From: Sphagnum compactum
Lineage: Eukaryota
Assembly (NCBI GenBank): GCA_965153455.1
Contig: OZ234493.1
Span: forward strand, 16,544,213 to 16,608,212
Length of the DNA: 64,000 nt
Direction of reading: 5' to 3'
Translations under genes and position numbers: made by a program
The notes under the pieces: generated by a model
Seen by the model: only the letters and a program-made list of their open reading frames with translations
The model's database searches: none
Told to the model about the DNA's origin: nothing
Shown here: piece by piece, positions 1 through 46,335 of the stretch
How the letters are laid out: each line of letters opens with the position of its first letter
How positions within the stretch are numbered: the stretch's first letter is position 1

Positions 1-1074
1 AAATCACCAACCAGAAAATCAACAATGGATATCAAATATTGAGAGCAAAGACATCAAGTTGCAACACGGTTGCGAGGAACATTGATGCTCAAAAAGAAAG
101 TTCTTTTGGTGGAGTGGGATGCTAGAAATCAACCAATCTGAATACCACACTCTTGACCTCTGTTTCTGAATGCAAATGGTGCTACTTTCAGAAATGTTCC
201 TACTTTCTTTCTTCTCAAATTTCCAATGATCTCCAATGCAATTAGCAAAGGTGTAAACATCTCCAATGATCTCCAATGCACTTAGCACAGGGGCATTAAA
301 TGAAAACCTCCCCCAACCCACTTAACTCTAAACCCTAGAACATGAACCCTCAACCAGTTATAAAAAATATACAAAATGTAAGATAAATCCAAGTATCCCC
401 TACACCTCCAATAACCAAAAATAAATATTTAAAGGCTAGAACCCACCCACTCCGGAAGAAAAGCAAACCCTTTCCCACTCCACCTATTAAGACCCCTAGA
501 ATCCCACCCCCTCCCCCCCTCCACGAAAAAAATAAAAATAAAATCGTGACCCTCCTAAACCCCCTAGCCCATCCATCCTTCAGGAAAGAAAAAACCGGAC
601 CCAAATCCCCTCACCCACCCTCCAAATCCCAAAAAAGCCTCCCCCAACACCCTCGCCTCCCCTCCGCAATCCAAAAGTTGATATTTTCAACTTCTTAGAC
701 TGTCCACCTATTCAAGCCAGTCTTGGACTGTCCACCCTATTTTAAGCCAGTTACATGCGCACCCACCACAGTCAGGGTGACTTTATGGACCACTGGGACT
801 CAAGGCGAAAAATTTAATAGGGTATGACACACCCTGTGAAACTCCTGCTGAATTTACCGATTTCTTTAATGTATGCCCAACACCACTACAGGCATGAGCA
901 GCGAGCATGTGATGAAGATTCAACAGCTCACATGACAGCAAACCATTTCTGTTGCCTTAGTATATTGTATGTATGGCAAAGGCAAGTTCTCAAATGGGCC
1001 ACTTTACTTTGGGAGCACTTCAATGGGCCGATAAGTCTTCTTGGCTGACAAACGATCAATTCAGAGGGTCCAGC

Positions 1075-1419
1075 CAGTGTTTCTTTTTCTCAATTTCTCA
1101 TGTCACATCAAAACTGGCGATCAGCCACAAGGGGATGTAGTCAGGTATGGTTACAAGACAAATAAAAAAGTAAAAATTATGGCAATCTTATTACATGTTG
1201 GCAAACCAATAAAACCTATTAACCAAATATGGGGATTTCACAAAAAGAAAGCTAGAAATCTGCCCAAGTCTTTCAAAAAAATTTGGCTATTTCATAACTC
1301 TCTTCTTCCTGAAAATGTTACAATTGTTTTAGGATTTTTCCAAAAAGTTCCCCTGACCATCTTGCTTGGGAGTTTCATCTATAGCAAAATGGCGAATTTC
1401 AGCAACTAAAATTTCACTG
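1075..1419. mobile_element. Non-autonomous hAT-like MITE
   Basis: Ends CAGTG...CACTG, flanked by a near-perfect 8-bp target-site duplication (ggtccagc 1067-1074 / gttccagc 1420-1427). Related internal motifs recur near 3200-3460, 15370-15441, 18440-18700, 19190-19440 and 58200-58330. Confidence 0.65.
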
Positions 1420-3743
1420 GTTCCAGCTCTAACAACCCCAATTATATCTGCTGACTCAGGTTGTGCATTATCAAACAATGACCAAATACATCAATTTTGT
1501 ACGCCTGAAAAGCACCGGTCACAGGAAAATATTCAAGTCTAAAACCTACACATGCTCAATTTTGGGGCCAAGCACCAACATGGGGCACGTGCCATGACTT
1601 TATGGTAAATGAAATTATGAACAATGTTTCCCAGCAGGTAATGAGGGGAGAAAAAGCTACACAGAGCAAAGAGTTGATATATTCTATATAAGAGGAAAGT
1701 TCTGACTAAGGACCAGCCTCACTTTTCTTTGCTGACACATGGACGGTGCAATCCATCAATGACCACTTGCATCCATTATCTTGTAGCCAGAAAAATCAGT
1801 GATCACAGGAAGTTGCAGGTCTAGTACTCACGCACAGACTGCATCGCTTTATTAAAGACTTCCAATCTTGAGCAATGTGAAAGCACAAGACGACAAGAGA
1901 AAAGACAGAAAAGCATCCAGCTGCAATAATATATTCCTGAGTAAAGTTCTGAGCAGGTAGCACAGAAAACTTTAACCAGCCTAAATTATGGCACACAGTA
2001 TGCACCATCCTAGAAGGACCACTTGGATCCTTTCTCTCAACCTCTAATCAGAACCACCCTTCCAAGATGTTCGCTAGACGGGCATAAATGCAAGGAGTCC
2101 AACGGACTAATACTCCCTTGGCTCAAATTTGCACCCGGGAGTTTGCTACAAATTTATATCAAGGTTGGTTCCCTTGTTGCGCTATTGCCGTCAATCTCCT
2201 CGCATATGTTTGTATGGCTTTGTGGCTCAATGCAACAACAAGAAAAGTGTTCATCATCCAATCACCACGTGCGAATGCTTTTCACATATCATCACGTCTT
2301 TTATGTCAAACTTGGTATTTCTCAAACATCAAATCTTTGGTTCCATGTCCTTGAACACATTAGTAATGTTATGAATATTTGACCTCAAGTAACGATTGTA
2401 TAATGATTCAAATTTGCACAAAGGCTCATCTACCATGATTTTCTATTAAGGTGGGTTAACTTGATGTTTTTCTTGATTGCCGTAGTGTTCACATGCATAT
2501 CATTGGGCTAGCAACCAACGCAAAACGACAACAAAAACTATCAAAGGTCATTTGAACATCACATCTTTTGCAATTTCTCAAAACTTGTAGGTATGTGTTT
2601 CACACAAAAACTTTTTAGCATCTTGAACTCAATATGTCTTGCAACGTCAAAATTAAGTTTGTGTTCTTATTCAAGGATATGAAAGGTATGAAGGTTGTGA
2701 TGAATGGAATGAGTGAATAATTAAAACATGAATACGATATTTTAAGGTTTCAAATGATATTATATTGAAAAGTTTAATTTGAACAAAAGTGGGACTTGCA
2801 TAAGCTAGTTACTCCAAATAGTTTTGCAACAATTAAAAGTTATGAATTTCCCATAAATAGAGTACTACAATAGTAACGTTTGCCAAGGAAAGAATCCCAT
2901 TCTACAACAATAATGTTAGACAAGGTTTGTGCATATGCATGTAAATATGCACGTGATGGAGTTGTGCAACAATATTGTTCAACAATGATCAAGTTTGTCA
3001 TTCAAATCACATTGAAATGGAATATCAACATGAGAACTAACTACATCAATGCATGTTCTAAATGATTCAATAATTTGTTCTTTGTAATTTATCATTTGTC
3101 CATTTATGTTTGGACCAAATCAATTTTGTAAACATTGACAAGGGAATGGGAAGAGAAATTTCAATAATAAGACATGAGACAAAATAATGATCAATCAATG
3201 TTTTGGGCAAAAATCACCAAAAGGCAACACAAGTTTTTACATACATATTATTTTGTTGCAAATTCCTTTTTTTGGATTTTTTTTGGCCTAAAAGTGATTT
3301 TAAAATATTTTTAGGGTGAAAGCATTGTTACACCTATGCCTATTAATTCCAAATTTTTAGAGTTCCTTGAAATAATGTTGTTAGTTAAATCAAATCTTGC
3401 CTAGGGATGCTTGTCACCTTAGCTCCATCGAGAAATGGAAAATATATATATTGATTTGGACGCACATCTTTTATCTACATTTACTGAATTGAACAAATTG
3501 CATAATGTAATGAAATGTTTATTACCAAATCACATTCTTTAAACTAAATGGAATAATCATCAATGATAAGAATCATGTGCTAATCATTGTGTAAGTAATG
3601 ATTACATTTCAATTTTATGTGAAAGTAAGATGACATAGGTTTGGTGGAATATCCCAAAAAAAAATCTCTATCACAATTATTTTGTTTCATGTTCAATATA
3701 TATATATATTCAATTATTTCATGTTCTTGACAAATGAAATGTG

Positions 3744-3800
3744 TATGAAAAAACCATGGAAGACCTTTACAAGGCTAGTGTTCATGAATTAAACAATGGA
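3744..3800 (+). pseudogene. Isolated degenerate TPR unit upstream of the main array
   Basis: tatgaaaaaaccatggaagacctttacaaggctagtgttcatgaattaaacaatg translates YEKTMEDLYKASVHELNN, matching the array consensus YQGALEDLDKADVLEPNN. Confidence 0.65.
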
Positions 3801-3819
3801 ATCATTTAAATAACACAAA

Positions 3820-4346
3820 ATCAAGGGAGCACCGAAATCCAATATAGACCATGTAGTTGGTTGCATAGGTAATCTTGGTCTGCCTACATGAGGGCGGCCT
3901 TTAAAGAGAGGGCTCACGCTATGGAAATTCCAGAAGAAATCCTGCAGGCTCTGTTTACCATGTACGCAGAAGGAAACGATGCGCCCCTAGATTTTCTTTT
4001 TGTTTGCTGTGTGCTCTCGTTTAACCGTCTTGGTCTTGAGAGAAGGCCTCGCACAGCTTCTTGTCGCATAAATTTAGGCGTGGGCTTGAGGTTTTTTATT
4101 TGAAATCCTCTAGGGTCCAAAATTCATAGCAAAATGGTCGCAGGAAGAAAACCGAGAGGAATGTTAAATGACCTGGCCTCCCTGACTTGACCTTCCAGTT
4201 ATGCTCCTGCAGCTCTACCGGTTCCCCTCGGTTTCCTTGTTGTTGGAATTTTCCTGTATGCTTTCGTGCAAGTAAAAAATAAATATATATTTTTTGCGGG
4301 CCGATCCCGTGATTGCGTCTTCGACTCTTGCCTGGTTCGGCAGGTT
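3820..4346 (-). other. Foreign GC/CpG-richer insertion (block A) inside the TPR array; possible 5' part of a group II intron (organelle-derived?)
   Basis: Abrupt composition change between TPR remnants on both sides. Minus strand reads ATGCGACAAGAAG from 4069, one change from the IIB-type GTGCGACA start. 3878-3910 is 32/33 identical to 39294-39326 in the block that carries domain V. Boundaries are approximate. Confidence 0.5.
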
Positions 4347-6313
4347 TATGTGGAAAATGTGAAAAAAAACGTTGAAACATTATCAAGTAGCCTTGGAAGA
4401 CCTTGACAAACATGATGTTATTAAATCAAGCATCGCAAATATTTTAAGGATTTTTATTAACAAACAGGTGTTGAATAATTATGAAAGAGCTTTCAAGGAC
4501 CTTGACAAGGTTCATGTTTTTGAACTAAACAATGCATTCACTTTGAAAACTTATGGAAAATGTCAAATATATGTTGCATGATTATCAAGGAGTAGCCTTG
4601 GAAAATATTCACAAGACTCATCTTCTTGACTCAAACAATGCATGCACTTTGAGAATTTTTGAACATGTTGGATGATTATTAAGAAGCCTTGGAAGACCTT
4701 GACAAGGTTGATGTTCTTGAACCAAACAATGCATTCCCTTTGAGGACTTGTGAATATGTCAAAAGGATGTTCCATGATTATCAAGGAGCCTTGAAGGACC
4801 TTGACAAGGTTCATGTTCTTGAACTAAACAATGCATCCACTTTGAATAGTCGTGAAAGAGTGAGATATATGTTGAATGATTATTAAAGACCTTTGGATGA
4901 CCTTAACAAGGTTCATGTTGTTGAACTAAACAATGCATTCACTTTGCAAATTCGTGGAGAGGTCAAAAAGATATTACATGATTCTCAAGGAGCCTTGAAG
5001 GACTTTGATAAGGTTGATGTTTTTGAACCAAATAATGCATTCACTTTGCAGACTCGTGGAGAGGTCAAAAGGATGTCGGTGATTATCAAGGAGCTTTGGA
5101 GGAGTTCGACAAGGTTAATGTTCTTGACCAAAACAATGCAATCACTTTGAGGACTCATGGAAATGTAAAAGGGATGTCACATGACTATTAAGGAGCCTTG
5201 GAGGACATTGACAAGGTTGATATTGTTCAACCAAACAATGCACTCATTTTGCGAACTTCTTGTAAGGTCAAAAAGATGTTTGATGACTATTAAGGAGCCT
5301 TGGACGACATTCACAAAGCTGATGTTCTTGAGCCAAACAATGCAACCACATTGAAGATTCGTGGAGATGTTAAAAAGATGTTGCATCACTATCAAGGAGC
5401 CTTGGAGGACTTTCACAACGTTGATGTTCTTGAACCAAACAATGCACTCATTTTGATTATTCATGCAGAGGTCAAAAAGATGTTGGATGACTATCAAGGA
5501 GCTTTACAAGACCTTGACAAGGCTGATGTTTTTGAACCAAACGATGCATTCACTTTGAGTGTTCGTGGAGATGTCAAAAGGATGCTAAATGACTATCAAG
5601 GAGCCTTGGAAGACCTTGACAAGGCTGATATCCTTGAACCAAACAATGCATTCACTTTGAGGAGCCGTGGAGATGTCAAAAGGATGCTACATGACTATCA
5701 AGGAGCCTTGCAGGACCTTGACAAAGCTGATGTTCTTGACCCAAACGATGCATTCACTTTGAATGTTCGTGGAGTTGTCAAAAGGATGCTACTTGACTAT
5801 CAAGGAGCCTTACAAGACCTTGACAAGGTTGATGTTCTTGAACCAAACGATGCATTCACTTTGAGTGTTCGTGGAGATGTCAAAAGGAAGCTGGATGATT
5901 ATCAAGAAGCCTTGGAAGACCTTCACAAGGCTGATGTTCTTGAACCAAACGATGCATTCGCTTTGACTGTTCGTGGAGATGTCAAAAGGAAGCTAGATGA
6001 CTATCAAGGAGCCTTGGAAGACCTTGACAAGGCTGATGTTCTTGAACCAAAGGATGCATTCACTTTGAGTGTTCTTGGAGATGTCAAAAGGAGGCTAAAT
6101 GACTATCAAGGAGCCTTGCAAGACCTTGACAAAGCTAATGTTCTTGAACCAAACGATGCATTCACTTTGAGAAGTCGTGGAGATGTCAAAAGGATGTTAG
6201 TTGACTATCAAGGAGCCTTGCAAGACCTTGACAAGGCTGATGTTCTTGAACCAAACGATGCATTCACTTTGAATGTTCGTGGAGCTGTCAAAAGGAAGTT
6301 GTATGATTATTAA
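4347..6313 (+). pseudogene. 5' portion of the TPR array, disconnected from the kinase ORF by stops and frameshifts
   Basis: Frameshifts in 4347-5190. TAA replaces the Gln codon of DYQ at 4680, 4884, 5189, 5291 and 6311. Units between 5294 and 6310 are otherwise intact and in frame with the downstream ORF. Confidence 0.75.
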
Positions 6314-8605
6314 GGAGCCTTGCAAGACCTTGACAAGGCTGATGTTCTTGAACCAAACGATGCATTCACTTTGAGTGTTCGTGGAAATGTCAAAAGGATG
6401 CTACTTGATTATCAAGGAGCCCTGCAAGACCTTGACAAGGCTGATGTTCTTGAACCAAAGGATGCATTCACTTTGAATGTTCGTGGAGATGTCAAAAGGA
6501 AGCTAGATGACTATCAAGGAGCCTTGGAAGACCTTGACAAGGCTCATGCTCTTGAACCAAATGATGCATTCACTTTGAGTGTTCGTGGAGATGTCAAAAG
6601 GAAGCTACTTGACTATCAAGGAGCCTTGCAAGACCTTTACAAAGCTTATGTTCTTGAATCAAACGATGCATTCACTTTGAAGAGTCGTGGAGATGTCAAA
6701 AGGATGTTAGTTGACTATCAAGGAGCCTTGGAAGACCTTGACAAGGCTGATGTTCTTGAACCAAACGATGCATTCACTTTGACCGTTCGTGGAGCTGTCA
6801 AAAGGAAGCTCGATGACTATCAAGGAGCCTTGGAACACCTTGACAAGGCTTATGTTCTTGAACCAAACGATGCATTCACTTTGAGTGTTCGTGGAGATGT
6901 CAAAAGGAAGCTCGATGACTATCAAGGAGCCTTGCAAGACCTTGACAAAGCTGATGTTCTTGAACCAAACGATGCATTCACTTTGAATGTTCGTGGAGAT
7001 GTCAAAAGGAAGCTAGATGACTATCAAGGAGCCTTGCAAGACCTTGACAAGGCTGATGTTCTTGAACCAAACGATGCATTCACTTTGAGTGTTCGTGGAG
7101 ATGTCAAAAGGAAGCTAGATGACTATCAAGGAGCCTTGGAAGACCTTGACAAAGCTAATGTTCTTGAACCAAACGATGCATTCACTTTGAGTGTTCGTGG
7201 AGATGTCAAAAAGAAGTTGGATGACTATCAAGGAGCCTTGGAAGACCTTCAGAAAGCTTATGTTTTTGAACCAAATGATGCATTCACTTTGAGGAGTCGT
7301 GGAGATGTCAAAAGGAAGTTGTATGACTATCAAGGAGCTTCGGAAGACCTTGACAAGGCTGATGTTCTTGAACCAAATGATGCATTCATTTTGAGTGTTC
7401 GTGGAGATGTCAAAAGGAAGCTACTTGAGTATCAAGGAGCATTGCAAGACCTTGACAAAGCTGATGTTCTTGAACCAAACGATGCATTCACTTTGAAGAG
7501 TCGTGGAGATGTCAAAAGGATGTTAGTTGACTATCAAGGAGCCTTGGAAGACCTTGACATGGCTGATGTTTTCGAACTAAACGATGCATTCACTTTGAAT
7601 GTTCGTGGAGCTGTCAAAAAAAAGTTGTATGATTATCAAGGAGCCTTGCAAGACCTTGACAAGGCTGATGTTCTTGAACCAAACGATGCATTCACTTTGA
7701 GTGTTCGTGGAGATGTCAAAAGGAAGCTACTTGACTATCAAGGAGCCTTGCAAGACCTTGACAAGGCTTATGTTCTTGAACCAAACGATGCATTCACTTT
7801 GAATGTTCGTGGAGATGTCAAAAGGAAGCTACTTGACTATCAAAGAGCCTTGCAAGACCTTGAGAAGGCTTATGTTCTTGAACCAAACGATGCATTCACT
7901 TTGAGTGTTCGTGGAGATGTCAAAAGGAAGCTCGAGGACTATCAAGGAGCCTTGGAAGACCTTGACAAGGCTTATGTTCTTGAACCCAACGATGCATTCA
8001 CTTTGAAGGCTCGTGGACATGTCAAAATAGTGTTATATGACGATCAAGGAGCCTTGGAAGACCTTGACAAGGCTTATGTTCTTGAACCAAATGATGCATT
8101 CACTTTGATGAATCGTGGAGTTGTCAAAAAAATGTTGCATGACTATCAAGGAGCCTTGCAAGACCTTGACAAGGCTGATGTTCTTGAACCAAACGATGCA
8201 TTCACTCTGAAGACTCGTGGAGATGTCAAAAGAATGCTACATGACTATCAAGGAGCCTTGGAAGACCTTGACAAGGCTAATGATCTTGAACCAGACAATG
8301 CATTCACTTTGAGGTTTCGTGCAGTTGTCAAAATCATGTTGCATGACTATCAAGAAGCCTTGGAAGACCTTGACAAGGCTGATGTTCTTGAACCAAACGA
8401 TGCATTCATTTTGAAGACTCGTGGATATGTCAAAAAGGAGTTGGATGACTATCAAGGAGCCTTGGAGGACCTTCACAATGCTAATGTTCTTGAACCAAAC
8501 GATGAATTCATTTTATCAGATTATGCCCACACGAATTGGAGTTTAAACAAATATCAAGCGGCATTGGAAGCCATGGATAAACTTCTTTTTATCAATCCAA
8601 ATGAT
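4347..8605 (+). repeat. Tandem array of ~102-bp units encoding 34-aa TPR motifs (~41-42 units)
   Basis: Consensus AFTLSVRGDVKRKLDDYQGALEDLDKADVLEPND has canonical TPR G8, Y17, A20, L24, A27, P32. Exactly 31 x 102 bp without indels from 5342 to 8503, a divergent capping unit at 8504-8605, and ~9-10 degenerate units at 4347-5341. Confidence 0.97.
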
Positions 8606-9187
8606 GATTTTATATTACGAGTTCGAAAATGGTTGAAATGGATGTTGGATGTATATCAACCCACAATAGAATTGTTGCCATTCAAATCAAATATTCAATC
8701 TTTTCCATACAATGAATTGAATCGTGGAAGAATATTGGGGAAAGGAATCTCTAGTAAAGTGTATCAAGGTTGTTGGAAAAACACCGAGATTGTGATTAAA
8801 GTTTTGGAATGGAGTGGCGACCATAATGAAGGTGCAAAAAGATTTTTCATATCAGAAGTGAACACCTTGGGATCAATTCAACATAACAATTTGGTTCGTC
8901 TTAAGGGCTATTGTATCGAAGGTCTACAACACATGGTGGTGTATGAATACATTTCAAATTCATCTCTTGACAAATGGCTCTCTGAAAATAAGATTTTGGA
9001 TTGGGATAAACGAATATGCATCATTATAGGGGTTGCTCAAGGATTGGCACACTTGCATCATAAATGTGATCCAGTTATTCTTCATCTTGACATCAAACCA
9101 CAAAATATCCTTTTGGATAAGGATTACACCCCAAAATTGGCTGATTTTGGGTCGGCAAAATTTTTAAATGGCCGGGATGAAAATGTG
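6398..9187 (+). CDS. TPR-array/protein kinase fusion, exon 1 (~21 TPRs + kinase subdomains I-VII)
   Basis: First in-frame ATG after the 6311 stop is at 6398 (true start uncertain). TPRs run directly into LGKGISSKVY, IVIK, FISEV, HNNLVRLKGYC, HLDIKPQNILLD and ADFG. Donor GTG|GTATGT at 9188. Confidence 0.88.
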
Positions 9188-9576
9188 GTATGTTCCCCAC
9201 CTTTTTTTTTGTTGATTAAGTGCATGGCATTATATTTTAGTGGAATTATGAACCTTGCAAATTTGAACACTCTTGTGGGCCACAATTTATTAATTTTATA
9301 TTTTCATTATTGTAGGTCATGGAATAAATATGATAAACAATCACAATTTAAAATGAATATTTGAAAAACACTTAATGTAATAATTCATATTACAATTTTT
9401 TTTTATGTGTGCACAAGTAATGACACAAGGATTGCAACTTTTGTTATTAAAAAAAAATCAAATTCCCTATTGGTATTAGACTATCTTGGGTGTGGGTTTT
9501 ATGAACTTCAACATTTATATTCAATGCATGCAATGCCCATTGAAATTATTGATTTTTAAAAAAAAATTACATTCAG

Positions 9577-9888
9577 ATTGCATTAGCATCAACTTCTACG
9601 CCAGGAACAATCGGATATATGGCACCAGAAATTCATTTAAATCAAGCATCGACAAAAAGTGATGTGTACAGCTTTGGAGTATTGTTGATTCAAATTGTGA
9701 ATGGATCACCATTGACTTTAGATGGAAAGAAAGTTCACATTCGCGACTTCATCCGATGGGTACGAAAGGTTCATGAAAAAGAAAATGGATTTCAACAAAT
9801 TTTTGATGTTGCAATCAATAATTCAATTGCCGGGTTTGATCAAAATGAAGCCAAATCACTTTTGCAAATTTCCCTTCAATGCATCAAG
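9577..9888 (+). CDS. TPR-kinase exon 2 (subdomains VIII-X)
   Basis: Acceptor ttcAG at 9575-9576, phase 0. Translates IALASTSTPGTIGYMAPE...KSDVYSFGVLL...ISLQCIK. Donor AAG|GTAAAT at 9889. Confidence 0.9.
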
Positions 9889-9967
9889 GTAAATTTTGTG
9901 CCAAACCTTTTATTTTATCAAAAACCTAAAATCATGGATTCGATGTAATATTTGAAACAATATGAAA

Positions 9968-11408
9968 CACTAATAAAAATCTTGTAGTTTATAACCATTC
10001 CTTGTGCAACTATGTGTGACTAAATGTTGCCTATGACAATGAATGGTTGCCTTTGAGACTAATTTTCAAATTTGGATGGATTTTGGTCTTCTTTTCAACT
10101 AGGTTGCAACTATGATCTATTTCTTCTTTCTGAAAGGTTGATTTTTCATAATGTCTTTGTTTTTTTTACAACATCATATATATATATTTAGTTGAACATG
10201 CAACCAAAATAGTTACATTATAGATACATAAAGTACATATGCTACTTAGTAGCTACACATATAGATTATTTAATAATACATACTTATCTATATGTATATA
10301 CCTACCTATTGAATGCCTACCTACCTAATTACCTACCTACCTATTTAATTACTAGGTACCCACATATGTACCATATACCTACCTATGTATTATTTATCTA
10401 CCTAACTACCTAGTTATTTACTAGGTACTTACATATATACCTATGCACCCATTAGCTACCTATAAGGCCTATTTAATTATAAATATTTATTTAGGGACTA
10501 TTTAAACAAGTATTTTAAATAATTAATTAATTATAAAAATTTAAATTTTTACTTAAAATAAATATTATCTAAATAGGTATCTAGTAAAAACTTATGCTAC
10601 CTAGTAGGTAGACTATGTAATAGTATGTGTTAGGGAATAGTTGCAACTAGGCTACAATTATGCGACTAAGAGCTACAACTAAAATTTTATCCCATATTGT
10701 TTGTCTTTTATTTCAAATTTACAAACTGTATAAGTAGGTTGGTTTGGTGTAGTAAACACATTCAATTTTTTCAATTGCCATATGGGAAGAGCTAATCACA
10801 TAAGCTCGACCCAATAGGCTACACTTAAAATAAAATTTGATTTTGTTGTAAAAATTTAGACCTAGACCTACCTACCTACCTACCTAAGTTAGACCATGGC
10901 TAGGTGGCCTAGGTGCCACATGGCCTATTGTAAATGGCCTAATTTGAAATTAGGTTAGGTACATTAAACACTTAATTAGGCTAGGTGGCCTAACCTAGGC
11001 CTAGCTTAGGTGCCAAATGGCCTATCATAAGTGGTCCAACCTTAAATTAACCCTAAATGATTATAATCTTAAGTTGCCACGTGGTTCAATCTTAGGCCAC
11101 CACATGGCAAAATATAGTTGTTTTAATTGGATAGTTGAAAAAAATTCAAATGATGCCACATGTTACATTCTTAAGCTATCATGTGTGAACATATTGGTGT
11201 ACATTGTAGTTGTAAGTGTAGTTGCAAGAACTCATCCTTGGATACATGTATAAAATCACCATACGTGTATTCTATGAAAAAAAAAATTTCATCCGTTGTT
11301 TGCAACTAGCATCATTTGTAATTGGTCGTTTGCTACTAGGCTGACTTTTAGTCGCAAACGTTGTTTGTGACTAGAATTTAGTTGCAAATTGCACTTTTTC
11401 TACTAGTG
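9968..11408. mobile_element. Non-autonomous CACTA (En/Spm) element in intron 2 of the TPR-kinase gene
   Basis: Left end CACTAATAAAAAT; right end tttttctactagtg (reverse complement CACTAGTAGAAAAA). 3-bp AAA on both sides. Subterminal gttgcaact repeats and internal cctacctac/cctaggc simple repeats. Confidence 0.75.
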
Positions 11409-11755
11409 AAATAAGTTAAATTGGATTGTTTAATGAATGTAAAACTTCTTTAAAAGGTTTGCACATGCAAATGGTACATTCAATTTCACTTGGAATTCGT
11501 TTAAACCATTTGCATGATTGATATGTAAAGTCAATTTGAGTATCCTAGTTTCAAATAACATAAAATTATGTTGTTGAATACATATATAAGTTGGTTTCAA
11601 CACTCCTTTTTTAAGGATATATGTTCAAATTATGTCATGAAAATTGAGACATGAGCATATGGTCTTATTTATTGAAGCATTTTGCCATGGTTTGATTGTA
11701 ATGTATAACAATTACATAATGAACATCTAACTTTTATGACATTTGTTTCTTATAG

Positions 11756-11911
11756 GAAGACCCAAATCAAAGACCGAAAATGCAAAAACTTTTGCAACAT
11801 TTGGAAGGATTGAACAAAAAGAAAGGATCGCAATATTTTACCACATTAATCCAGGCTTTCAACCCATTATCGAAACTAGTTGGTGCCTTCTGGGACCTGG
11901 AGTGGAGGTAG
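11756..11911 (+). CDS. TPR-kinase exon 3 (subdomain XI and C-terminus)
   Basis: Acceptor tatAG at 11754-11755, phase 0. Translates EDPNQRPKMQKLLQHLEG...WDLEWR* (TAG 11909-11911), the expected DPxxRPxM motif. Spliced product from ATG 6398 is 1085 aa. Confidence 0.85.
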   Translation, partial: EDPNQRPKMQKLLQHLEGLNKKKGSQYFTTLIQAFNPLSKLVGAFWDLEWR

Positions 11912-17199: not shown

Positions 17200-17975
17200 A
17201 TTTATGAGTGTAATTTGAACCTTATTTGATTGTTTAATAATTTCAAATTGTTGATGTGGAAATTGAAGTAACCTTTAATTTTATTTACACAATGCATATA
17301 ATGGGTTAGTGATTTTTTAAACATTTTTTTCAATTGTCAACATGGTACATGAATTGAACCATCAACTTTTAACATCCTAAACCATTGTTTAAGAGTTACT
17401 TTTTCACTTACCATAATTTCTTAAAACATATAACAATTTTAAACTCCACATTTATATTGGAATGAATTGGTGATTTTTTTTCATGTCTTTCAATTATCAA
17501 AATGTGTACATGAGTTGAATTATTCACTTTTAATTTGTTGAAATCATTATTCATAAATTGCATATTATAGTTATTATAATGTCCTAAAACGCATGCAACT
17601 CAATATTTTGCAATTATACTTGAATGGTTAAATCATTTTTCCCACTTTTTTTGAATTATAAACATATTTACATGAGTTGAATCATCCATTTTGAACTTAT
17701 TGAAATCATTATTCAAACATTGCATGTTACACTTATTAGTATATATTGAAACACACACAACAATTTAATGCTTCACATTTATACTTGATTAAGTTAGTGA
17801 TTTTTTTTGCATATTTTGAATTATTAACATTTGCACATGAGTTGAATCATTCACTTCGAATGTTGTTAAATCCATTATTCATGATTTGTATTTTGCACTC
17901 ATCACAATTTTTTGAAATGGATGGATAAAAACTTGGTAAGTCTCACATTTATATTTGAGTGGGTTAGTGATTAAG
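17200..17975. repeat. Degenerate tandem repeat, ~160-bp period, ~5 copies
   Basis: catgagttgaatcat-like anchors near 17350, 17510, 17672 and 17837, each followed by tgaaatcattattc ... cacatttata ... ttagtgatttttt. Confidence 0.7.
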
Positions 17976-27589: not shown

Positions 27590-28860
27590 TTCAAGTCCAA
27601 AATCTATGTCAATTCTAAAACGTAGGTTTTTTGGAATTGATGTAGGTTTTGATATCCATACCTTTTACTTTGCAATGTTAATAAACAATTGAAACTTATG
27701 TCAATTCCCAAAAAACCTATGTCAATGTAGGTTTTTTGGAATTGGCCTAGGTTTTGATATTCACATCTTGCGCCCATCCTATATTGATAAACATTTGAAA
27801 ATCCAAAACCTATGTCAATGTAGGTTTTTTGGGAGTGGACATAACCTTTGATATCCATGCCATGTGCCTATCCAATTCCAATAGAAAATTGAAAATAAAA
27901 AACTAGCACCCAACTTGCATAAATTCCCAAAAAATCTATGTTGACATAGTTTTTTTGGAATTGACATAGGTTTTCATATCCACGCATTGTACCTTTGCAA
28001 TGTTGATAAACAATTGTAAATCCAAAACCAATGCGAATTCAAAGAAAACATATGTTGATATAGGTTTTTTTGGATTGACATAGGTTTTGATATCCATGCC
28101 TTGTGTTAGTCCAATGTTGATAAACAATTCAGAATCCAAAATCTATGTCAATTTTTTTTAAACCTACGTTGACATAGGTTTTTCTAGAATTGACATAGGT
28201 TTTGATATCCATGCTTCATACTCTACAATACTAAACAATTGAAAATACAAAACCTAAAAATCCAAAACCTATGTCAATGTAGGTTTTGATATCCATGCCA
28301 TGTACTTGTCCAATATGGATAAACAATTGAAAATCCAAAACCTATGTCAATTCCAAAAATACCTACATTAATGTAGGTTTTTTTGGAATTGGCATAGGTT
28401 TTGATATCCATGCCTTATGCTTTGGAATGTTGATAAACAATTAAATTTTTTAAACCTACGTCAATTCCAAATAAACCTACATTGGCATAGGTTTAGATAT
28501 CCATGCTTTGTATTCTACAGTGTTGAAAAACAATTGAAAATTCAAAACCTATGTCAATTCCCCAACAACCAACAAAAAATGTTAATGTAAGTTTTTTGGG
28601 AATTGATGTAGGTTTTAATATGCATTTTTTACTTTGCAATGTTGATAAACAATTGAAAATATAAACCTACATCAATCCCCCAAAAACCTATGTCAATGAA
28701 GGTTTTTTAGGATTTGGGAATGAACATAGGTTTTGATATCCATGCCTTGCCCCCTTGCAATGTTGATAAACAATTGAAATCCAAAATCAACACTAATTCC
28801 CAAAAAACTTATCTTGATTTATGTTTTTAAAAAATTGATGTGGGTTTTGGTATCCTTTTC
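27590..28860. repeat. Tandem array (~11 units, ~110-125 bp) of internally palindromic units
   Basis: Unit: aaatccaaaacctatgtcaattcc...aaacctatgtcaatgtaggttttttggaattgacataggttttgatatccatgc[variable]caatgttgataaacaattg. aaaacctatgtcaattcc is the reverse complement of ggaattgacataggtttt. Confidence 0.9.
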
Positions 28861-33290: not shown

Positions 33291-36200
33291 TTCCCTCTCA
33301 AGCTCAAATCCACTTCTAGTACACCAAACATTTTTCTAAACTTCCTTAGTTTGTCTGTACCCAAAGCCTTTGTGAAAATGTCAGCAACTTGATCTTTAAT
33401 ACTGACATGAATAAGGTTAATTTCTTTTGCTAGAACTTTTCTCTAATAAAGAAGTAGTGCACCTCAATGTGCTTTGTCCTAGCATGATAGATCGGGTTGT
33501 TTTAAGTAGTATGCTACTAATGTTATCACAATAAATGACAACAAGAGCATCCATTGATTGTCCCAAATCTGAGAGTAGTTTTTGTAACCAAACTACTTCA
33601 CATGTAGCAATTGTTGCGCCTCTGTATTCTACCTCCGTGCTTGATAGTGCAATTGTTGGTTGTTTCTTACTACAACTAACAACACCACTTCTAAAAAAAA
33701 ACATGAAACTAGTGGTTGATCTTCTATTTGAAACATTGCCAACCCATTCATCATCAGAGTATCCATGTACTTATAACTAGCTTTTGACTTCATAAAAAAT
33801 TCCACACTGCAAATTATGTTTTATGTACTTCAATATGCACCTCACTGCATCCAAATGTGGCTTTTGTGGTGTTTGCATGAATTGATTCACCATTCCAAAT
33901 ACATATCTCAAATCTGGCCTTGTGATGGTCATGTAAATCAAACTCCTCACTATGCACATGTACATAGTGGTATCCTCCACAAGGTCTCCTTCATATGCAC
34001 TTGACTTCACATTTTGCTCCAATGGAATTGAAATGGGTTTGCAACCCGTCATCCCATATTTAGACAATTTGTTTAAGGCATATTGCCTTTGCAGTAACCA
34101 TATCCCTTTAGGGGACTGGATTACCTCATTGCCGAGGAAGTAACGTAATTCTCCCAAATCTTTCATCTCAAACTTTTGCTTCAAAAGCTTCTTGAAATCA
34201 AAGATGTCTGCACCACTATCTCTTGTGATAATAAAGTCATCAACATAGATGACTATGATTGCAATCCCATGATCTGTCTTTTTCACATATAGTGAAAAAT
34301 CTGCATTGGATGTTTGAAATCCACTTGTGACAAGATATTGACCTATCTTGTCTGACCAAGTTCTAGGTGCTTGTTTCAAGCCGTACAAAGTTTTTTTCAA
34401 CCTACAAACCAAATTAGGATGTGTTTGGTCAACATAACCTGGTGGTTGTTTCATGTACACTTCTTTTTGTAAATCTTCATGAAGAAAAACATTCTTTACA
34501 TCCATTTGATGTAAAGACCATCCTTTTGTTGTTGCCATAGCAATGATTACTCTTACAGTTGTCATTTTGGCAACTGGACTATAGGTCTCCTCATAGTCTA
34601 TGCCATAAGTTTGGGCATTATTTTTGGCAACCAATCTTGCTTTATATCTACTCATAGATCCATCTGCATTGTGCTTGACCTTGTACGCCCATTTGCACCC
34701 AATTGCTTTCTTGTCCTTTGGTAAAGCTACCAATTCCTAAGTAGCATTAGCATCCAATGCCGCCATCTCTTCATCCATGGCATTGTCCCACTTGGGGTTT
34801 TCAACCACCTATTCAAAACAAATGGGTTCAACCTCCTGTATAACTCTCACCATGTACGCATAATGATGAGCTACAAAGCCATCATATGTGAGTCTTTGTA
34901 CAGGGTATTTAACTCGTGTGGATCTTCGTATTCCATTGTTGTTGTCAGGTGTTTTTAAAGCTTTCTTGGCCATCCAAGCTCTGGGAGTATTAACTGAAGG
35001 GACTTTTGATTCTTCATCCACACTCTTCTCTAAATCACTTGACTCACCATCTACATGAGAATTTCTAGATGATGTTTGAGAACTACCCTGTACAATGTTT
35101 AAAGATTTTAATCTTCCTTTCCATGGAGTGCTATTGGACCCACTAATTGAAAACTCTTGTGGTCCATTAATGAATTGTGATTCTTGTTCCACATTTGATG
35201 AAACATCACCATTTCTAGCCTCTCCATCTTTTGCTATCTTCAGTGGTGAGTACCAGCTAACCATCTCATCAAACACAATATCTTTACTCACTTGCAACTT
35301 TCGAGTGGAAGGGTTGAAGCATCTATATCTTTTTTATTCTGAGGAATATCTAATGAAGATACACTTTTCAACTTTTGGATCTAGTTTTGATCTCTTCTCA
35401 TCATGAACATGCACATATGCAATGTAACCAAACACTCTGAGGTGTGAGACATCTGGTTTCTTGCTTGTGAATTTTTCTTCAGGTGTCATGCCATGAACTG
35501 CCGCTGTGGGTGTTTGATTCATGATATAGACTATAGTTGCTACCGCTTCAGCCCAAAAGTAATTTGACAATTTTTTTTCATTTAACATGGCACATGTTAT
35601 TTCTACAACGTGCCTGTTTTTCCTTTTAGCAACTCCATTCTGCTGTGGGGAATAACTACATGAGTACTTCCTTTGAATTCCATGCTCCTTCAAGTACTCA
35701 CTGAATTCATTCGAAAAATATTTTCCCCCTCCATCCAACCTTAGGCACTTGATGTTCACACCTTTCTCCTTCTCCACCATTGCTTTGAAAATCAAAAAAT
35801 GTTGAAACACTTCACCTTTGTGTTTCATGAAATAAATCCACACCTTCCTTGTGTGGTCATTAATGAAACTCACGTAGTACCTGCATCCTCCAATGGATTC
35901 TGTCTTCGTGGTCCACACATTTGAGTGGATCATTTCCAAAGGTTTGGAACTTACATGAGTTGTTTGAACTGGGAATGGATGCCTAGCTTGCTTCCCCAAT
36001 TGGCATGCTTCATAAACTTCTAACATCACCTCTTCTATTCCAAATTTGGGAAGACCTCGAACAAGATTTTGTTTTTCCATCAATTTAAAACGTCGGAGAT
36101 TAACATGGCCAACCCGCTTGTGCCAAATTCCAATGTCTCTAGCTCTTTTTCCATGTTTGAATAACATGGAATTCACCTTAGGCATGTTCACATCCAAGGT

Positions 36201-37995
36201 GAACATTTGTCCATTCCTTTCCCTTTTTGCAATCAATTTGCCTTGGTCTTTCATGTCTTCCACAAAACATCCATTAGGGTTGAATGTCACCTGTAAACTT
36301 TGTTCCACCATCTGGCCTACGGAGACCAATTTTTTTGTTATGGTTGGAACATGAAGTACATATTTTAAGTACTTTGTTTGCCCGTTTTGCATGGACAATG
36401 ACACCTTGCCAATTTGTGTGATGGGATGTGTAGTGTCATCATCAGTTTCCACAAACCCTGGTGTTTTCAAATCCCTTGTGTTTCTAAACCATTCTTCATG
36501 ATTCGTCATGTGGTTTGAAGCTCCAAAATCACATACTAGACATTATTATCTCATACACCTATCATTGAATTTGCCATGTACTACATCATAAACAATTGCT
36601 CATCACCTTGATTGCTAATTGATGCATAATTCCCTTGTTACAGCTTTCCATTTCGTGCATCATGCTCCCTTTGATAATAGTTCTTTGCCATGTGCCCAGG
36701 TTTCTCGCAGTAGTAGCAGTTTGAGTCGTTATTTGGTTGTTGACTTCAATGATTTCCACCACAACCTCCATGACTTCCTCTTCCTCCAAAGTTTCCTTGT
36801 CCACCTCCCTGAAGCTGACCTTCATGTTGATGATGTCCACCATGCGAGCTTCTGTGTCGACCTCGAAATGAGGTTTTACCACCTCTACCTCTACTTCTAT
36901 TAGTATTTGAATAAAAAACATTTTTTTGTGATCTTCTATTGGATGAAGTACCAACAATTCTCATCCCTTCACTTATAAGTAGGGTTATTAAATCTTGAAA
37001 ATGGGGAAATGTTTCTCAAACTGCAATTGAAGTACAAAACTAGCTATAGTATTTTCCAAGTCCATTCAAGGTCACAGTCACTAGATCTTCATCATCTATA
37101 GGGGCTCCTATAGATACAAGAACATCTGCAAGGTTTTTCACCTTTGTAGAATAGTCACTGATGTTCATTTTGTTTTTTTGTAGATTATGCAACTCTTGTT
37201 TGAGCTGCATTTTGCGAGCTTGGGTATTGGTGCTATACATCTTCACCAATGTATCCCAAGCTTGCTTGGGTGATTGTGCATCTTGAATATGCACAATCAT
37301 GGAATCGGACACACTCATAGAAAACCAATACAAGACTTTCCTTGGTTTTTCATGTTAAGTTTTGTTGGCTTGAATTTGTTGTTGTGTGAGGTTTTCTAGG
37401 AGAGGAGGTTCTTTCTCATCACCAGTTATGAACTCCCAATAACCTTTCCCCATCAAGAAATTCATAATCCTAAATTTCCACACTTAGAAATTATTCTTGT
37501 CTAATTTCTCAATTACAATTTGAGAAAGATCGTCCGCCATATCTCAAGACAACTTTCAATGTCTTCTTGGGGTTTCATAAATGATTTTAATTCCTTCCTT
37601 GAGTTTCTAGGATTAGGATTAGGGTTTTCCTTCCTTAGTTTCTAGGATTACGGTTAGCGTCAAGGTTGAACAAGATGGACCTTGCATATGTATGTATGTC
37701 TTGAGTATTATACGAAATTTTATACTATACATAGGTTTTACGTATATGTACGTATTTCGTGTAATATTTGTATGGTATTAAATACATGATTTTGTATGAA
37801 GGTTTTGATAATGTATTTGCGCTCCTCAATCTTCAAACTCCTTCCTTCAAGTTCTCCCAAGTTGTATTTGCTCCACTTCAAAAATTTGTTTTAATGTCTT
37901 CTCAATATAAACTTTTGTCACAATAACTTTGCAAAGCTATGACCTTGGATCGATCTGAAATTCCGGTGAACCATGAAAAACTATGTCTATTACCA
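32971..37995 (-). mobile_element. Decayed Ty1/copia LTR retrotransposon, 5' LTR missing
   Basis: Minus-strand order gag (MADDLSQIVIEKLDKNNF*VWKFR from 37540), protease (GASNHM ~36510), integrase (WHKRVGH, 35334-36509), RT (IGCKW, HQMDVKN, IYVDD, 33777-34733), RNase H (SSTEVEY, IYCDN). Many stops and frameshifts. Confidence 0.95.
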
Positions 37996-41724: not shown

Positions 41725-44136
41725 TCACCTGGCAATATCCAATCTGTCCAAGAAGTCTCATAACCTGTCCATATGAAGACAAAATCAAAACAACATTGGA
41801 TTCAAAAACTGCAAGCCATTACAACAAGTGGCACATAACCTTCAAAATGCAGAATAGAATGAAATCCTTCTCCAACATTAGAGAGGGCAGAAGCTTTCAG
41901 AAGTTGCAACACTCAAACCCTTTATCTGCCAGAATAATTTCTCCCTTCACCTGACAGCAACACACTTAAGGTCTGATATCAAAGAACATGGATGATTGCA
42001 GTCAGGAAGCCACAAAAAATCACAGCAGCGTAGTGTTGAGCTTAAAATGATGTATGCATCTTGACCATCTTTGGTCATCTTACATCCTGACCAAAGATGT
42101 TAAGAATTTCATGAAAACCACAAAAGGATCAGACAAAAAAAAGGAGAAAACCTTTCAGCAAGGGGAGCCTGAAAAGCTTACCGAACATTTTTGGCAATGA
42201 CAGTGTTCCCATCAGCAGCATCATGGTGACGTAACTTCACCTCCTCCCTACTTCCATCTGTAAACATATGCTGCACATGAAGGAAATTCAACATATGAAA
42301 CCAGCTAAATATGCAAAATCCTGAGCAGGACCATCCGATGCCAACTGGAGTTGTCAAATGGTGTTAAGACAACATGGTCACATGGGGGTCAGCTACACTC
42401 TGACATCACAATTTGAGTTGCACAGAGGACAGAGAACAAAACAAGCTGGTTTCCTTACCTTATAGAAGCAGCTAGTTCCAAAGGGACAGGTTCCATTTCC
42501 ATAGTCAAAATACTTGCAATCAATATCACTGCACACACAAATACACCCCTAACATTCAATTACAAAAACATTGTGCATGTATTTTTACATATGTGTGCAT
42601 CAGGAGCTAAGGTAAAGCATTCTATGTGTTCTCACATAAGAATGCAAACACCTAGAGACCAATAAGGACTTTGGGGTCACCCCTTATGCCTCCATGTCCA
42701 CATGATCTCCTTGATTGCTTGAATTGTTCAAGGGATGGAAAAGGAGGGCGTACACCAGTCATTTAATGTGCAACACACCACCCACCTATGACAAATCCGA
42801 GCACAATCTATATACACAAATATTGACAAATCAGGCACCCAACCAAATAAAACACTGATGGTCACAGCTGGGTGCAGCCACATGACAAGCCTACCAGAGT
42901 GGCTGCGCCAATCTTCCAAGTCAAAATCCAACCAGCTGGCCGGTCATTAGACAGATCCATAATAGGGTGAGTATGACCTTAAAGGGCAATTACATATCAG
43001 GTACCATCTGTCAAGTAGCATGTCAGATGGGTAATAAAACCTCAAGTCGTGATAGGGACATCAAATAGAACAAACAGCTTTAGGTTCTCATGCACACACC
43101 TGAGCTTGTTCTTATAACCGTTGATTATATCCTCCTTTTCTTCAGACTTGAGTACCAAACAACACTTGGGACTATAAAATGTGAAGCTACTCGACAAACT
43201 GGGCAGGCCTGCACAACAGTATCAATGTCCATCCACGTGCATGAGAACCACTCCGCCAACCCCGTATACAGCCAACACAAAATGGATGATCACAGCCCGA
43301 CATTAATCCAAATTTCCGCTCAGCAACTGATGGCTTTGAAAGCACCCACTCCAGACAGACACTGCATTCAATTTCTTGGCTCTTGCGAAGTGCCTCAAGC
43401 TTCTTCTGGTTACGTTCACACTGCTGCCTGTGGCTATCACGTTCTGATGGACGAAATGGATGCAAACAATGCTTCCCACAAGTTGGGCACAAGTCACCAT
43501 GAATCTGCAGGCAGTTATCACCCTGAGGGCATATGCCAGCAGCTGCAAACGCGCAGATTGGGATCTCACTCGGGTCGTTGGACCTTGGCATTTCAATCTC
43601 TTCAACATCCTTTTCATCATCTTCTTCCAGAAATCGGGGACCCAGATTAGCCTTGCCTTCTGTGAGTTGCCAGGCACTTTGTGTATGGGTATTGCTTGAG
43701 CCCTCTTCTGCCCTACTTGTGTCTGGAGATGAGTTAAGAGCTACCACTGAAGGTCTTGGTGGGGAAGGGAGAGGATTATTTGACACTGGATGGGACAGTT
43801 TTACATGCTCATACCTGCAACGACTGCCATAAGAACAAAGGCCACGCTGATAAAATGTGCATACCTGCACATGATCATACAACAATCAGTACACACACAT
43901 GACAGGACCACTGAAAAAACAATGTTCTAATTGAGGGGAAAAACAAAGCCATGCGCAAACTGAAAGCTGTGAGCATAATCTTTTTCCAGAAAGGAAACAC
44001 TTTTAACACATGAAGCTTGTTAGAGGAGAGACGATGCTCTTTACTTACCTGGCTAGCCTGGTCACTCCAGCTATGACAGAACATGCAATCTTCTCCTTTC
44101 AAACACGCTCCATGCATGAAGAACTTGCATAACACC
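41725..44136 (-). pseudogene. MKRN: Makorin-type E3 ligase (CCCH zinc fingers + RING), probably pseudogenised
   Basis: Exons 44136-44049 (VLCKFFMHGACLKG), 43864-43100 ([19 protein letters not shown]...CSVCLE...[14 protein letters not shown]...ACPVCR), 42528-42459 ([21 protein letters not shown]), 42270-42182 and 41764-41725. All junctions GT-AG with consistent phases. 1-nt frameshift at ~43233 and TGA at 41758-41760. Start exon not resolved. Confidence 0.88.
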
Positions 44137-45832: not shown

Positions 45833-46335
45833 GTAAGTGAGGATGTCTCTCTTGCCTTATTGCCTTACAATCTACATGCATGGATTATGTTATTTATCAG
45901 TTTGAAACACAAGCAAACTGCTGCTCCTGCTGCCGTAAGTGAGGATGCAAAAGATGCCATCACTTGCAAAATGCATCTGAATCATGTGAATGAGTTTGCA
46001 ACACAAGCAAACTGTAGCTCCTGCTGCTGTAAGTGATAATTCAAAAGATGCCATCATCAATTGCTTTGCAAAATGCATGAGCATCTGTGACTCAGTTTGC
46101 AATGCAAGTAAACTGCAGCTCCTGCTGCAAAGGAGAAGGAAAGGATGCCATCATGTATTGCTTTGCAAAATGCATGTGGATGATGTAAATCAGTTTGCAA
46201 CACAAGCAAACTGTAACTCCTGCTGCAAGTGAGGATGCAAATGATGCCATCACATATTGATTTGCAAAACACATGCCACGTGTATCAGTTTGCAGTGCCA
46301 GCAAACCAAAGCTCCTGTGTATTGCTTTGCAAAAG
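45784..46335 (+). repeat. Tandem repeat (~6 x 95-100 bp) of the exon end / intron start
   Basis: Unit atcagtttgcaacacaagcaaactg..gctcctgctgct-GTAAGTgaggatgc..gatgccatca..ttgcaaaatgcat. GTAAGT retained at 45833, 45935 and 46029. Confidence 0.85.

Follow-up and report, generated by a model that had tools for sequence, protein, structure and literature searches.

What do the tandem repeats of a kinase gene in the peat moss Sphagnum compactum have to gain from differing at a few codons while the rest of each unit stays almost the same? The stretch considered here, a window of 64 kb of plant nuclear DNA from contig OZ234493.1, carries at 5342-8503 of the forward strand 31 in-frame units of 102 bp, each coding for 34 amino acids and starting AFTL, of the tetratricopeptide repeat (TPR) type and placed ahead of a protein kinase domain. 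The variety of these units could be a recognition surface shaped by selection, drift on a surface under little constraint, or the legacy of a few ancestral units. The answer to which we lean, with a little better than even confidence, is that the array would be the sensor portion of a cytoplasmic TPR-kinase gene that is specific to its lineage and has its nearest relatives in Sphagnum, one in which variety of the groove is kept on a constant scaffold.

Tandem Repeats Finder places the repeats at 4665-8514 (period 102, 37.8 copies, 86% matches), and the 31 units, obtained by cutting the in-frame part into 102-bp pieces, follow one another without a single indel in 3162 bases. Their mean pairwise identity is 88% in nucleotides and 77% in amino acids; central units may lie only 3-6 of 102 nucleotides apart, with nucleotide identities of up to 96-97%. 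The scaffold of the units is near-identical, most synonymous sites included. No two of the 31 units are the same, and they display 23 distinct combinations at positions 5, 6, 9, 13 and 15. The residue pair at positions 5-6 is SV in eleven units, NV in six, RS in three and TV, KS or KT in two each, with KA, MN, RF, KI and II occurring once; position 9 is occupied by D, A, V, N, H, Y or E, position 13 by K, M, R, V or E, and position 15 by D, L, N, H, V, Y or E. Entropy over the 31 units is highest at these five positions (2.53 bits at 15, 2.40 at 5, 1.85 at 6, 1.67 at 9 and 1.50 at 13). The next ranks, absent from an earlier reading made from the letters alone (hereafter the sequence-only reading), belong to positions 28 (1.46 bits, nearly as variable as 13), 25 (1.06), 12 (1.03) and 22 (1.00). 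No variation occurs at positions 1, 4, 10, 11, 14 and 20, most of the rest are fixed in at least 28 of the 31 units, and the canonical TPR residues are kept, Gly8, Ala27 and Pro32 in 29 units each and Ala20 in all of them. Leu14 is invariant in the 31 units, yet five codons are in use for it. From 155 inferred nucleotide changes, 54 fall in the five busiest codons, a share that none of 20000 random allocations reached. The uneven distribution of variation among unit positions is real and goes far beyond chance, and the register of 31 units, the residue lists and the high-entropy positions of the sequence-only reading were all reproduced exactly.

The location of these positions in the repeat fold can be described with some precision. 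Pfam assigns the units to TPR_2 (E=9e-61) as well as TPR_1 (E=1.4e-54), model positions 2-34 coinciding with unit positions 2-34, and a search of PDB sequences matches them, in the same register, to designed consensus TPRs (E=1e-25 to 1e-30). Since both registers agree, the position numbering used by the sequence-only reading is the canonical TPR numbering. An AlphaFold2 model of units 11-18 (8 units, 16 helices), computed from a 57-row alignment of relatives, reached a mean confidence (pLDDT) of 98.3 and a predicted template modelling score (pTM) of 0.90; a single-sequence model, with pLDDT 51 and spurious strands, was discarded for this alignment-based one. In the modelled unit helix A runs from position 1 or 2 to 13, the turn comprises 14-16 and helix B spans 17-30. 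The best Foldseek matches to the model are consensus TPR superhelices of 8 and 16 repeats (E=2.5e-16 and 3.1e-16), followed by the TPR domain of OGT, and the units are predicted to stack as a continuous right-handed TPR superhelix.

The face on which each position lies was taken from Magliery & Regan (2005, PMC1261162) and not from model coordinates. The portions of that study used here give positions 2, 5, 9, 12, 13, 33 and 34 as the most variable of TPRs and as part of the concave face, and list positions 2, 5, 6, 9, 12 and 13 as the peptide contacts of HOP TPR1 and TPR2A. Positions 5, 6, 9 and 13 (and 12) are hence helix-A groove positions. The proposal that the variable sites line the ligand groove is borne out for 5, 6, 9 and 13, which lie in helix A of the model and on what the literature gives as the concave face, and is not borne out for position 15, in the A-B turn. 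Variation is restricted to few binding-face positions, the exceptions being turn position 15 and positions 22, 25 and 28, which are located in helix B; at the groove positions 2, 33 and 34 the array is conserved.

In order to avoid a post-hoc choice of sites, the contact codons 2, 5, 6, 9, 12 and 13 of Magliery & Regan were adopted as a pre-defined set. These codons stand at 2.65 vs 1.0 non-synonymous changes per non-synonymous site (p=2.9e-6), and their non-degenerate sites have a mean diversity of 0.309, 2.7 times the 0.113 of the 38 synonymous-capable sites (p=0.0014). At codons 5, 6, 9, 13 and 15 the proportion of non-synonymous differences (pN, pairwise Nei-Gojobori) is 0.355 against a synonymous proportion (pS) of 0.141 over the whole unit and of 0.067 within class, while by the same method the ratio of non-synonymous to synonymous change (dN/dS, omega) of the remaining scaffold is 0.30. 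On the all-site unit tree the five codons accumulate 44 non-synonymous changes over 12.5 sites (3.51 per site), to be compared with 50 synonymous changes over 21.6 sites in all (2.31 per site); recombination among units inflates such tree counts at every site of intermediate frequency. The eight non-degenerate sites of the five variable codons show a mean of 3.4 nucleotide states vs 1.7 at the six strict four-fold sites (p=0.004), and all four bases are present at four variable-codon sites and at no strict four-fold site. Shared, and hence older, variants inside the variable codons are non-synonymous in 15 cases and synonymous in none, and transversions make up 17 of 26 changes there vs 25 of 59 elsewhere (p=0.06). 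Point estimates of omega at the variable codons lie between 1.5, obtained from tree counts, and 6.8, obtained from the class pN/pS. That amino-acid change is concentrated on the helix-A contact codons is a solid result; that omega exceeds 1 at the variable codons is likely, though short of demonstrated. Two other sources of the changes, a diversity-generating retroelement and a mutational hot spot, were considered and rejected: the sole reverse transcriptase belongs to a copia element 25 kb away, and the variable-codon changes are of all types.

Several of these figures, and some others, weigh against diversification by selection. The difference between 3.51 and 2.31 changes per site is only of moderate significance (binomial p=0.028, Poisson p=0.005). 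Synonymous diversity is itself uneven, with a nucleotide diversity (pi) of 0.05 at strict four-fold sites and 0.34-0.57 at codons 14, 26 and 33, and therefore the neutral yardstick is uncertain. The most variable position of all, 15, is no listed groove position. Scaffold codon differences between two duplicated blocks of the array, units 8-13 and 21-26, are 20 non-synonymous to 6 synonymous, and scaffold changes private to one unit are 27 to 8, the neutral expectation being a non-synonymous fraction of 0.70-0.77; the private changes include alterations of canonical residues (P32S, P32L, G19R, Y17D and L21S). Hence, the recent evolution of the locus looks unconstrained. The whole could be explained by relaxed constraint, a possibility that we take seriously and nevertheless judge doubtful: groove and turn would be the least constrained surface of a TPR, their variation would have drifted, and the locus would now be a decaying pseudogene with no code to be read. 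Besides the neutral ratio of the private changes, this explanation can call on the tree rate of the contact set, which at 2.65 is close to the synonymous 2.31 (omega about 1.15), and on a worst-case post-hoc null that treats every non-degenerate site as neutral and selects the best eight (p=0.92). It also agrees with the variability of positions 2, 5, 9, 12 and 13 in TPRs generally, as reported in the portions of Magliery & Regan already cited, and in many unrelated arrays, and with the state of the reading frame, since no frame started by ATG spans the whole array, interrupted as it is by a TAA in unit 10 and preceded by decayed units. Drift does not readily produce, however, a 2.7-fold excess of diversity over synonymous-capable sites in a set of codons defined beforehand, nor sites with all four bases that have no four-fold counterpart, nor shared variants that are without exception non-synonymous, and the tendency to transversions and the depletion of stops and indels described below point in the same direction. 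The diversifying selection proposed by the sequence-only reading is in consequence retained in part: the non-synonymous enrichment of the contact codons stands, and the evidence for an omega above 1 is moderate (p=0.005-0.03) and does not survive the post-hoc null.

The condition of the frame deserves separate consideration. The units upstream of the 31, at 4330-5341, agree with the consensus at 66-84 of 102 positions and five of the ten have another length (101, 91, 106, 99 and 104); they carry frameshifts, four of them a TAA at codon 18, and all are of the R/K/Q type at position 5. Inside the 31 units the TAA of unit 10 is the single defect. It splits the frame into 5294-6313 and 6314 onward, and the next in-frame ATG, at 6398, is Met13 of unit 11. 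Five in-register stops were noted in total, all of them TAA at codon 18 (6311-6313, 5291-5293, 5189-5191, 4884-4886 and one near 4680). Of the consensus codons, only CAA18 can become a stop by a single transition, and the recurrence of TAA at this codon is explained by C-to-T decay of CAA18, with no need for an unusual genetic code. A code in which TAA is read as glutamine was rejected on the grounds of this unique stop-proneness of CAA18, the frameshifts upstream and the ordinary plant genes in the window (the copia element and a CCCH gene).

Among 155 neutral substitutions 4.5-6.8 stops would be expected in the 31 units and one is seen (P of one or fewer, 0.009-0.06), indels are absent vs five of ten units affected upstream, and the non-synonymous share is smaller among the older, shared variants of the scaffold (14:10, p=0.03-0.14). 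The depletion of stops, the lack of indels and the intact kinase and splice sites would all count for past function. The simplest history would be one in which the array diversified under selection and constraint was lately relaxed. At present the locus would be either translated from the internal ATG at 6398, giving 21 units, the capping repeats and the kinase, or recently disabled, and it may be a young pseudogene. Among gene models of relatives, P0003 and P0237 start at Met13 of a TPR unit, the model of P0001 begins MTIKEPW, an out-of-frame (frame-2) reading of a unit, and P0237 continues into intron 1; 5' ends that are broken or wrongly modelled are suggested to be common in the TPR-kinase family.

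Positions 5 and 13 do not vary independently. Nine of the ten units with K/R at 5 have a non-basic residue at 13, and K/R is found at 13 in 16 of the 19 units with S/N/T at 5 (naive Fisher p=0.0012). The sequence-only reading had given the same counts, which are exact, and had read them as covariation. Positions 5 and 6 are perfectly coupled, as all 19 S/N/T-5 units have V6 and none of the 12 others does (p=1.5e-6), and in the all-site unit tree the (S/N/T)V units form a single clade of 19 (SH-aLRT 92). On that tree the K/R-5 class changes twice and basic 13 three times, so that the independent contrasts number one or two. The first base of codon 14, a synonymous one, shows about as strong a link to the class of position 5 as residue 13 does (8:2 vs 5:16, p=0.0057), which is what linkage by descent predicts. 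Non-basic residues at 13 are found in all ten edge units (1-5 and 27-31) vs 4 of the 21 central units (p=2e-5). Basic 5 and basic 13 show no negative association in the 39 related arrays that are informative (stratified z=+0.38), and in the relative P0003 two units combine K/R-5 with K-13. A salt-bridge rule, exactly one basic residue at 5 or 13 beside an acidic residue at 9, was tried and dropped (19 of 22 vs 6 of 9, p=0.32). None of the tests that might have favoured a functional coupling did so. Once repeat phylogeny is taken into account, the covariation is essentially explained by descent from two unit types. The coupling of 5 and 13 is a by-product of two unit lineages, an older one of the type (K/R)x...M and a locus-specific one of the type (S/N/T)V...K that expanded to 19 copies; (S/N/T)V appears in 1 of 47 units of six close relatives and in 0 of the 10 decayed upstream units.

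The array was shown to have grown by duplication of units and blocks. Units 8-13 and 21-26 form a duplicated block with the common order SV, (R/K)S, NV, SV, NV, SV and 41 differences in 612 nucleotides; units 9, 14 and 22 differ by 3-7 nucleotides, and units 10 and 23 by 3. Within the central units 6-26 no similarity between neighbours was detected (permutation p=0.66 and 0.82). The question is whether descent would be enough to mimic a code: a few ancestral unit haplotypes, block-duplicated and gene-converted, with little independent change per unit, would yield both the apparent code and the coupling of 5 and 13. The single clade of (S/N/T)V units, the perfect linkage of V6 with the class of position 5, the duplicated block, the near-identical units and the rarity of (S/N/T)V outside the array are all to its credit. 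As an explanation of the entire pattern it is nonetheless improbable. All 31 units differ and 23 of 31 combinations at the variable positions are distinct, and since their duplication the two blocks have diverged 2.4 times more per nucleotide in variable codons than elsewhere (12/90 vs 29/522, p=0.011). The unit tree built from scaffold sites only is a star in which 0 of 28 branches are supported and unit types are not separated, and descent is therefore not provable from scaffold sites. Descent explains the covariation well, but not the placement of variation at helix-A positions.

Errors in the assembly would be another source of unit variation, and of the TAA, if long 102-bp tandem arrays, which are hard to assemble, had been put together wrongly or read errors had persisted. 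The 46 variant alleles private to one unit could be seen in that light, and the comparison with reads covers only the 3' edge of the array and the kinase. Read errors, though, often are indels and there is none in the 3162 bases; the variation is strongly structured by codon; a DNA contig of 437 bases (run X1) matches 8449-8885 with 0 differences; and relatives from four Sphagnum species have the matching unit type and variable positions. An artefact is accordingly held to be very improbable.

The gene that carries the array is predicted to have three exons, all 31 units sitting in the first of them (Table 1). The kinase frame is intact over the three exons, with canonical splice sites, and the motifs VIKV, HLDIKPQN, DFG and GYMAPE are readable. 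It encodes a complete eukaryotic protein kinase domain, probably of the RLK/Pelle type, a type given by its best matches, which outside Sphagnum are LRK10L-2 and SD2-5 (G-type-lectin) receptor kinases with 37-49% identity; the HLD catalytic loop is of the non-RD type. Splicing of intron 1 is seen in RNA contigs about 92% identical to the locus from the metatranscriptome runs X6 and X9, which are near-identical throughout, may be one data set and were counted as one observation. No RNA contig of at least 99% identity was found over the kinase of the locus, only those relatives of about 92%, and the missing cover is no evidence of silence. Judging from the RNA of relatives, the family is transcribed and spliced as modelled. 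In the readable part of the gene no signal peptide, ectodomain or transmembrane segment was found, and a Pfam scan of 6320-9187 and 9577-9888 returned TPR and kinase families only, with no NACHT or NB-ARC. The list of open reading frames (ORFs) for 1-4400, which were not passed through Pfam, contains no obvious coding frame.

Table 1. Features of the TPR-kinase locus in window coordinates
Feature	Position	Strand	Basis
Decayed TPR units (about 10, numbered -9 to -0)	4330..5341	+	Unit-consensus comparison
31 in-frame 34-residue TPR units	5342..8503	+	Tandem Repeats Finder, Pfam
In-frame TAA, unit 10 codon 18 (consensus CAA, Gln)	6311..6313	+	Sequence
Two divergent capping TPR-like units (32, 33)	8504..8707	+	Caps also in Sphagnum relatives P0001-P0004
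Linker and first kinase part (Gly loop, VIK lysine, HLD loop, DFG)	8708..9187	+	Pfam Pkinase E=4.5e-29; continuous with repeat exon
Intron 1, GT..AG, donor GTATGT at 9188	9188..9576	+	RNA contigs of ~92%-identical relatives join 9186/7 to 9576/7
Kinase exon 2 (GYMAPE to QCIK)	9577..9888	+	Pfam Pkinase E=1.5e-8, model positions 155-241; tblastn of P0001-P0003
Intron 2 (GTAAAT...TTATAG)	9889..11755	+	RNA of relatives runs from 9889 into exon-3-like sequence; that motif at 11757
Kinase exon 3 (EDPNQRP... to stop)	11756..11911	+	57-69% identity to P0001/P0003 C-termini

TPR-kinases with matching caps, linker and kinase are found in S. tenellum, S. fallax, S. magellanicum and one further contig, with 61-74% identity over cap and kinase, and a model of S. 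balticum has one repeat and the kinase behind leucine-rich repeats (LRRs). The relatives from four Sphagnum species have the unit type and the variable positions in common; in the 11-unit array of S. fallax (P0002) the top variable positions are also 5, 9, 6 and 13, and position 15 is a fixed Lys. The TPR subtype LxxRGxxKxxLxDxxGALxDL extends further: the moss Ceratodon has it with other kinases, Botryococcus braunii with NB-ARC, Gigaspora rosea with BTB, and Nostoc (cyanobacteria) with trypsin-like proteases. In several of the internally conserved arrays of the last three (P0125, P0137, P0174, P0182, P0183, P0203 and P0126) positions 5, 6, 9, 12 and 13 rank with the most variable, and they come first in many of the internally conserved arrays of the subtype. 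Longer fused homologues (1674-4780 aa) gave none at E<=1e-30, which is weak evidence. A search of representatives (50% clustering) with unit 31, caps and kinase yielded a handful of family members, P0237-P0239 and a few short ones. Its top match, P0236, was rejected as a relative, being a tandem kinase-fragment protein without link to the TPR array; this predicted protein of 1069 aa repeats a segment of the kinase catalytic loop (HRDIKPGN...DFG) about 17 times in tandem.

The rest of the window holds a degenerate Ty1/copia interior at 33777-36960 (-), its gag-pre-integrase, integrase (rve) and RVT_2 parts split over several frames. A CCCH zinc-finger ORF at 43187-43885 (-), with a cysteine-rich tail that looks RING-like by eye, adjoins a G+C-rich ORF of 322 aa at 45068-46036 (+), which has no Pfam match and runs into tandem repeats of 94-98 bp at 45896-46269. 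AT-rich intergenic tandem repeats lie at 17305-17881 (period 162) and 27937-28561 (periods 93-114).

If the favoured reading holds, that of a groove kept variable on a constant scaffold, the 34-residue TPR array, expanded by duplication of units and blocks, would fold into one long superhelix, its C-terminal end joined by way of the two caps and a short linker to a Ser/Thr kinase of non-RD RLK/Pelle type. Variety would be kept at the groove-facing helix-A positions 5, 6, 9 and 13 (and 12), at position 15 of the turn and, to a smaller extent, at positions 22, 25 and 28 of helix B, and the duplication, loss and exchange of units would create new groove surfaces. The groove could bind an extended protein or peptide ligand and the kinase would signal the binding, so that a recognition module of the fungal NLR kind would be wired to a kinase instead of a NOD domain. 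The fast-evolving non-self receptors of fungi and brown algae are characterized by near-identical repeats whose binding positions are hypervariable, and the presence of such repeats on a receptor-type kinase suggests that bryophytes may hold receptor architectures beyond the NLR and RLK classes of flowering plants. At least three Sphagnum species have related TPR-kinases, and Ceratodon has a more distant kind. A far-reaching version, which at this stage is speculative and rather unlikely to hold, would be that peat mosses own intracellular receptors without a NOD domain, in which a hypervariable TPR superhelix, rapidly reshuffled and with as many as 30 or more units, sits on a non-RD RLK/Pelle kinase and the groove residues 5/6/9/12/13/15 form a modular surface for proteins of pathogens or symbionts, as an NLR-independent counterpart of the fungal HET/NLR sensors. 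This significance is tempered by the facts that the locus may be a pseudogene and that selection is suggested, not proven. The locus is in any case a natural series of 31 consensus-like TPRs, usable in repeat-protein engineering.

With known systems the array has partial likenesses. It agrees with HOP TPR1 and TPR2A and with the designed consensus TPRs (CTPR) in fold, in the 34-residue register and in variable helix-A contacts at 5, 6, 9, 12 and 13. It departs from the generic TPR groove in that variability is found there between unrelated TPR proteins and here among 31 near-identical repeats of one gene, and in that positions 2, 33 and 34 are conserved whereas variability is greatest at position 15, which in CTPR is a conserved Gly. 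With transcription activator-like effectors (TALEs) it has in common a tandem repeat of 34 residues, a near-fixed scaffold and few variable positions per unit. In TALE repeats, built on a different helix-loop-helix, it is positions 12/13 that vary, and each repeat reads one DNA base; the moss units are TPRs by Pfam and by fold and vary at 5, 6, 9, 13 and 15, and the array gives no sign of DNA binding or of a code of one unit for one symbol. TALE chains did appear in the PDB sequence search (E of about 1e-13 to 1e-9), with 0 stretches passing the threshold on their own, and such matches are probably a by-product of common period and composition. From the comparisons drawn in the sequence-only reading, that with the repeat-variable diresidues of TALEs is an analogy only, and that with the fungal HET/NLR repeats is apt.

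On the output side, the nearest kinase domains outside Sphagnum, those of LRK10L-2 and SD2-5, have the non-RD catalytic loop in common with the moss gene, the HxD (non-RD) loop being typical of these groups. Non-RD kinases have reportedly been linked to innate immune receptors. Unlike receptor kinases, the moss gene has as its sensor a TPR array of cytoplasmic type, N-terminal to the kinase. BSK proteins combine both domains in the opposite order, kinase then TPR, with few non-repetitive TPRs. No paper on a moss TPR-kinase family was found in the literature search, supplements lying outside it.

The closest parallels come from repeat receptors of other lineages. In the parts of Zambounis et al. 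(2012, PMC3341825) drawn on here, the repeats of the NB-ARC-TPR and LRR-ROCO proteins of Ectocarpus are proposed as fast-evolving ligand binders, with diversifying selection detected by codon models, and the use of repetitive TPR/LRR modules for this task is the point of likeness. According to the same parts, each 42-residue TPR of Ectocarpus is an exon of its own, subject to exon shuffling, and the partner domain is NB-ARC or a ROCO GTPase; in the moss 31 units lie in one exon and the partner is a kinase. For the TPR, ANK and WD repeats of fungal NLRs, Dyrka et al. (2014, PMC4986451), in the sections consulted, place polymorphic and positively selected sites on the concave TPR face, describe diversification through gain, loss and shuffling of repeats, as is proposed for the moss array, and put the highly internally conserved share of such repeats in Viridiplantae at only 0.4%. 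Their cut-off of 85% amino-acid identity compares with a mean of 77% at the moss locus. The moss gene stands outside the fungal NLR class because it has no NOD domain, neither NACHT nor NB-ARC; its output is a C-terminal RLK/Pelle-type kinase and its host is a plant. It is no member of that class, but it would work like the fungal NLR repeat sensors.

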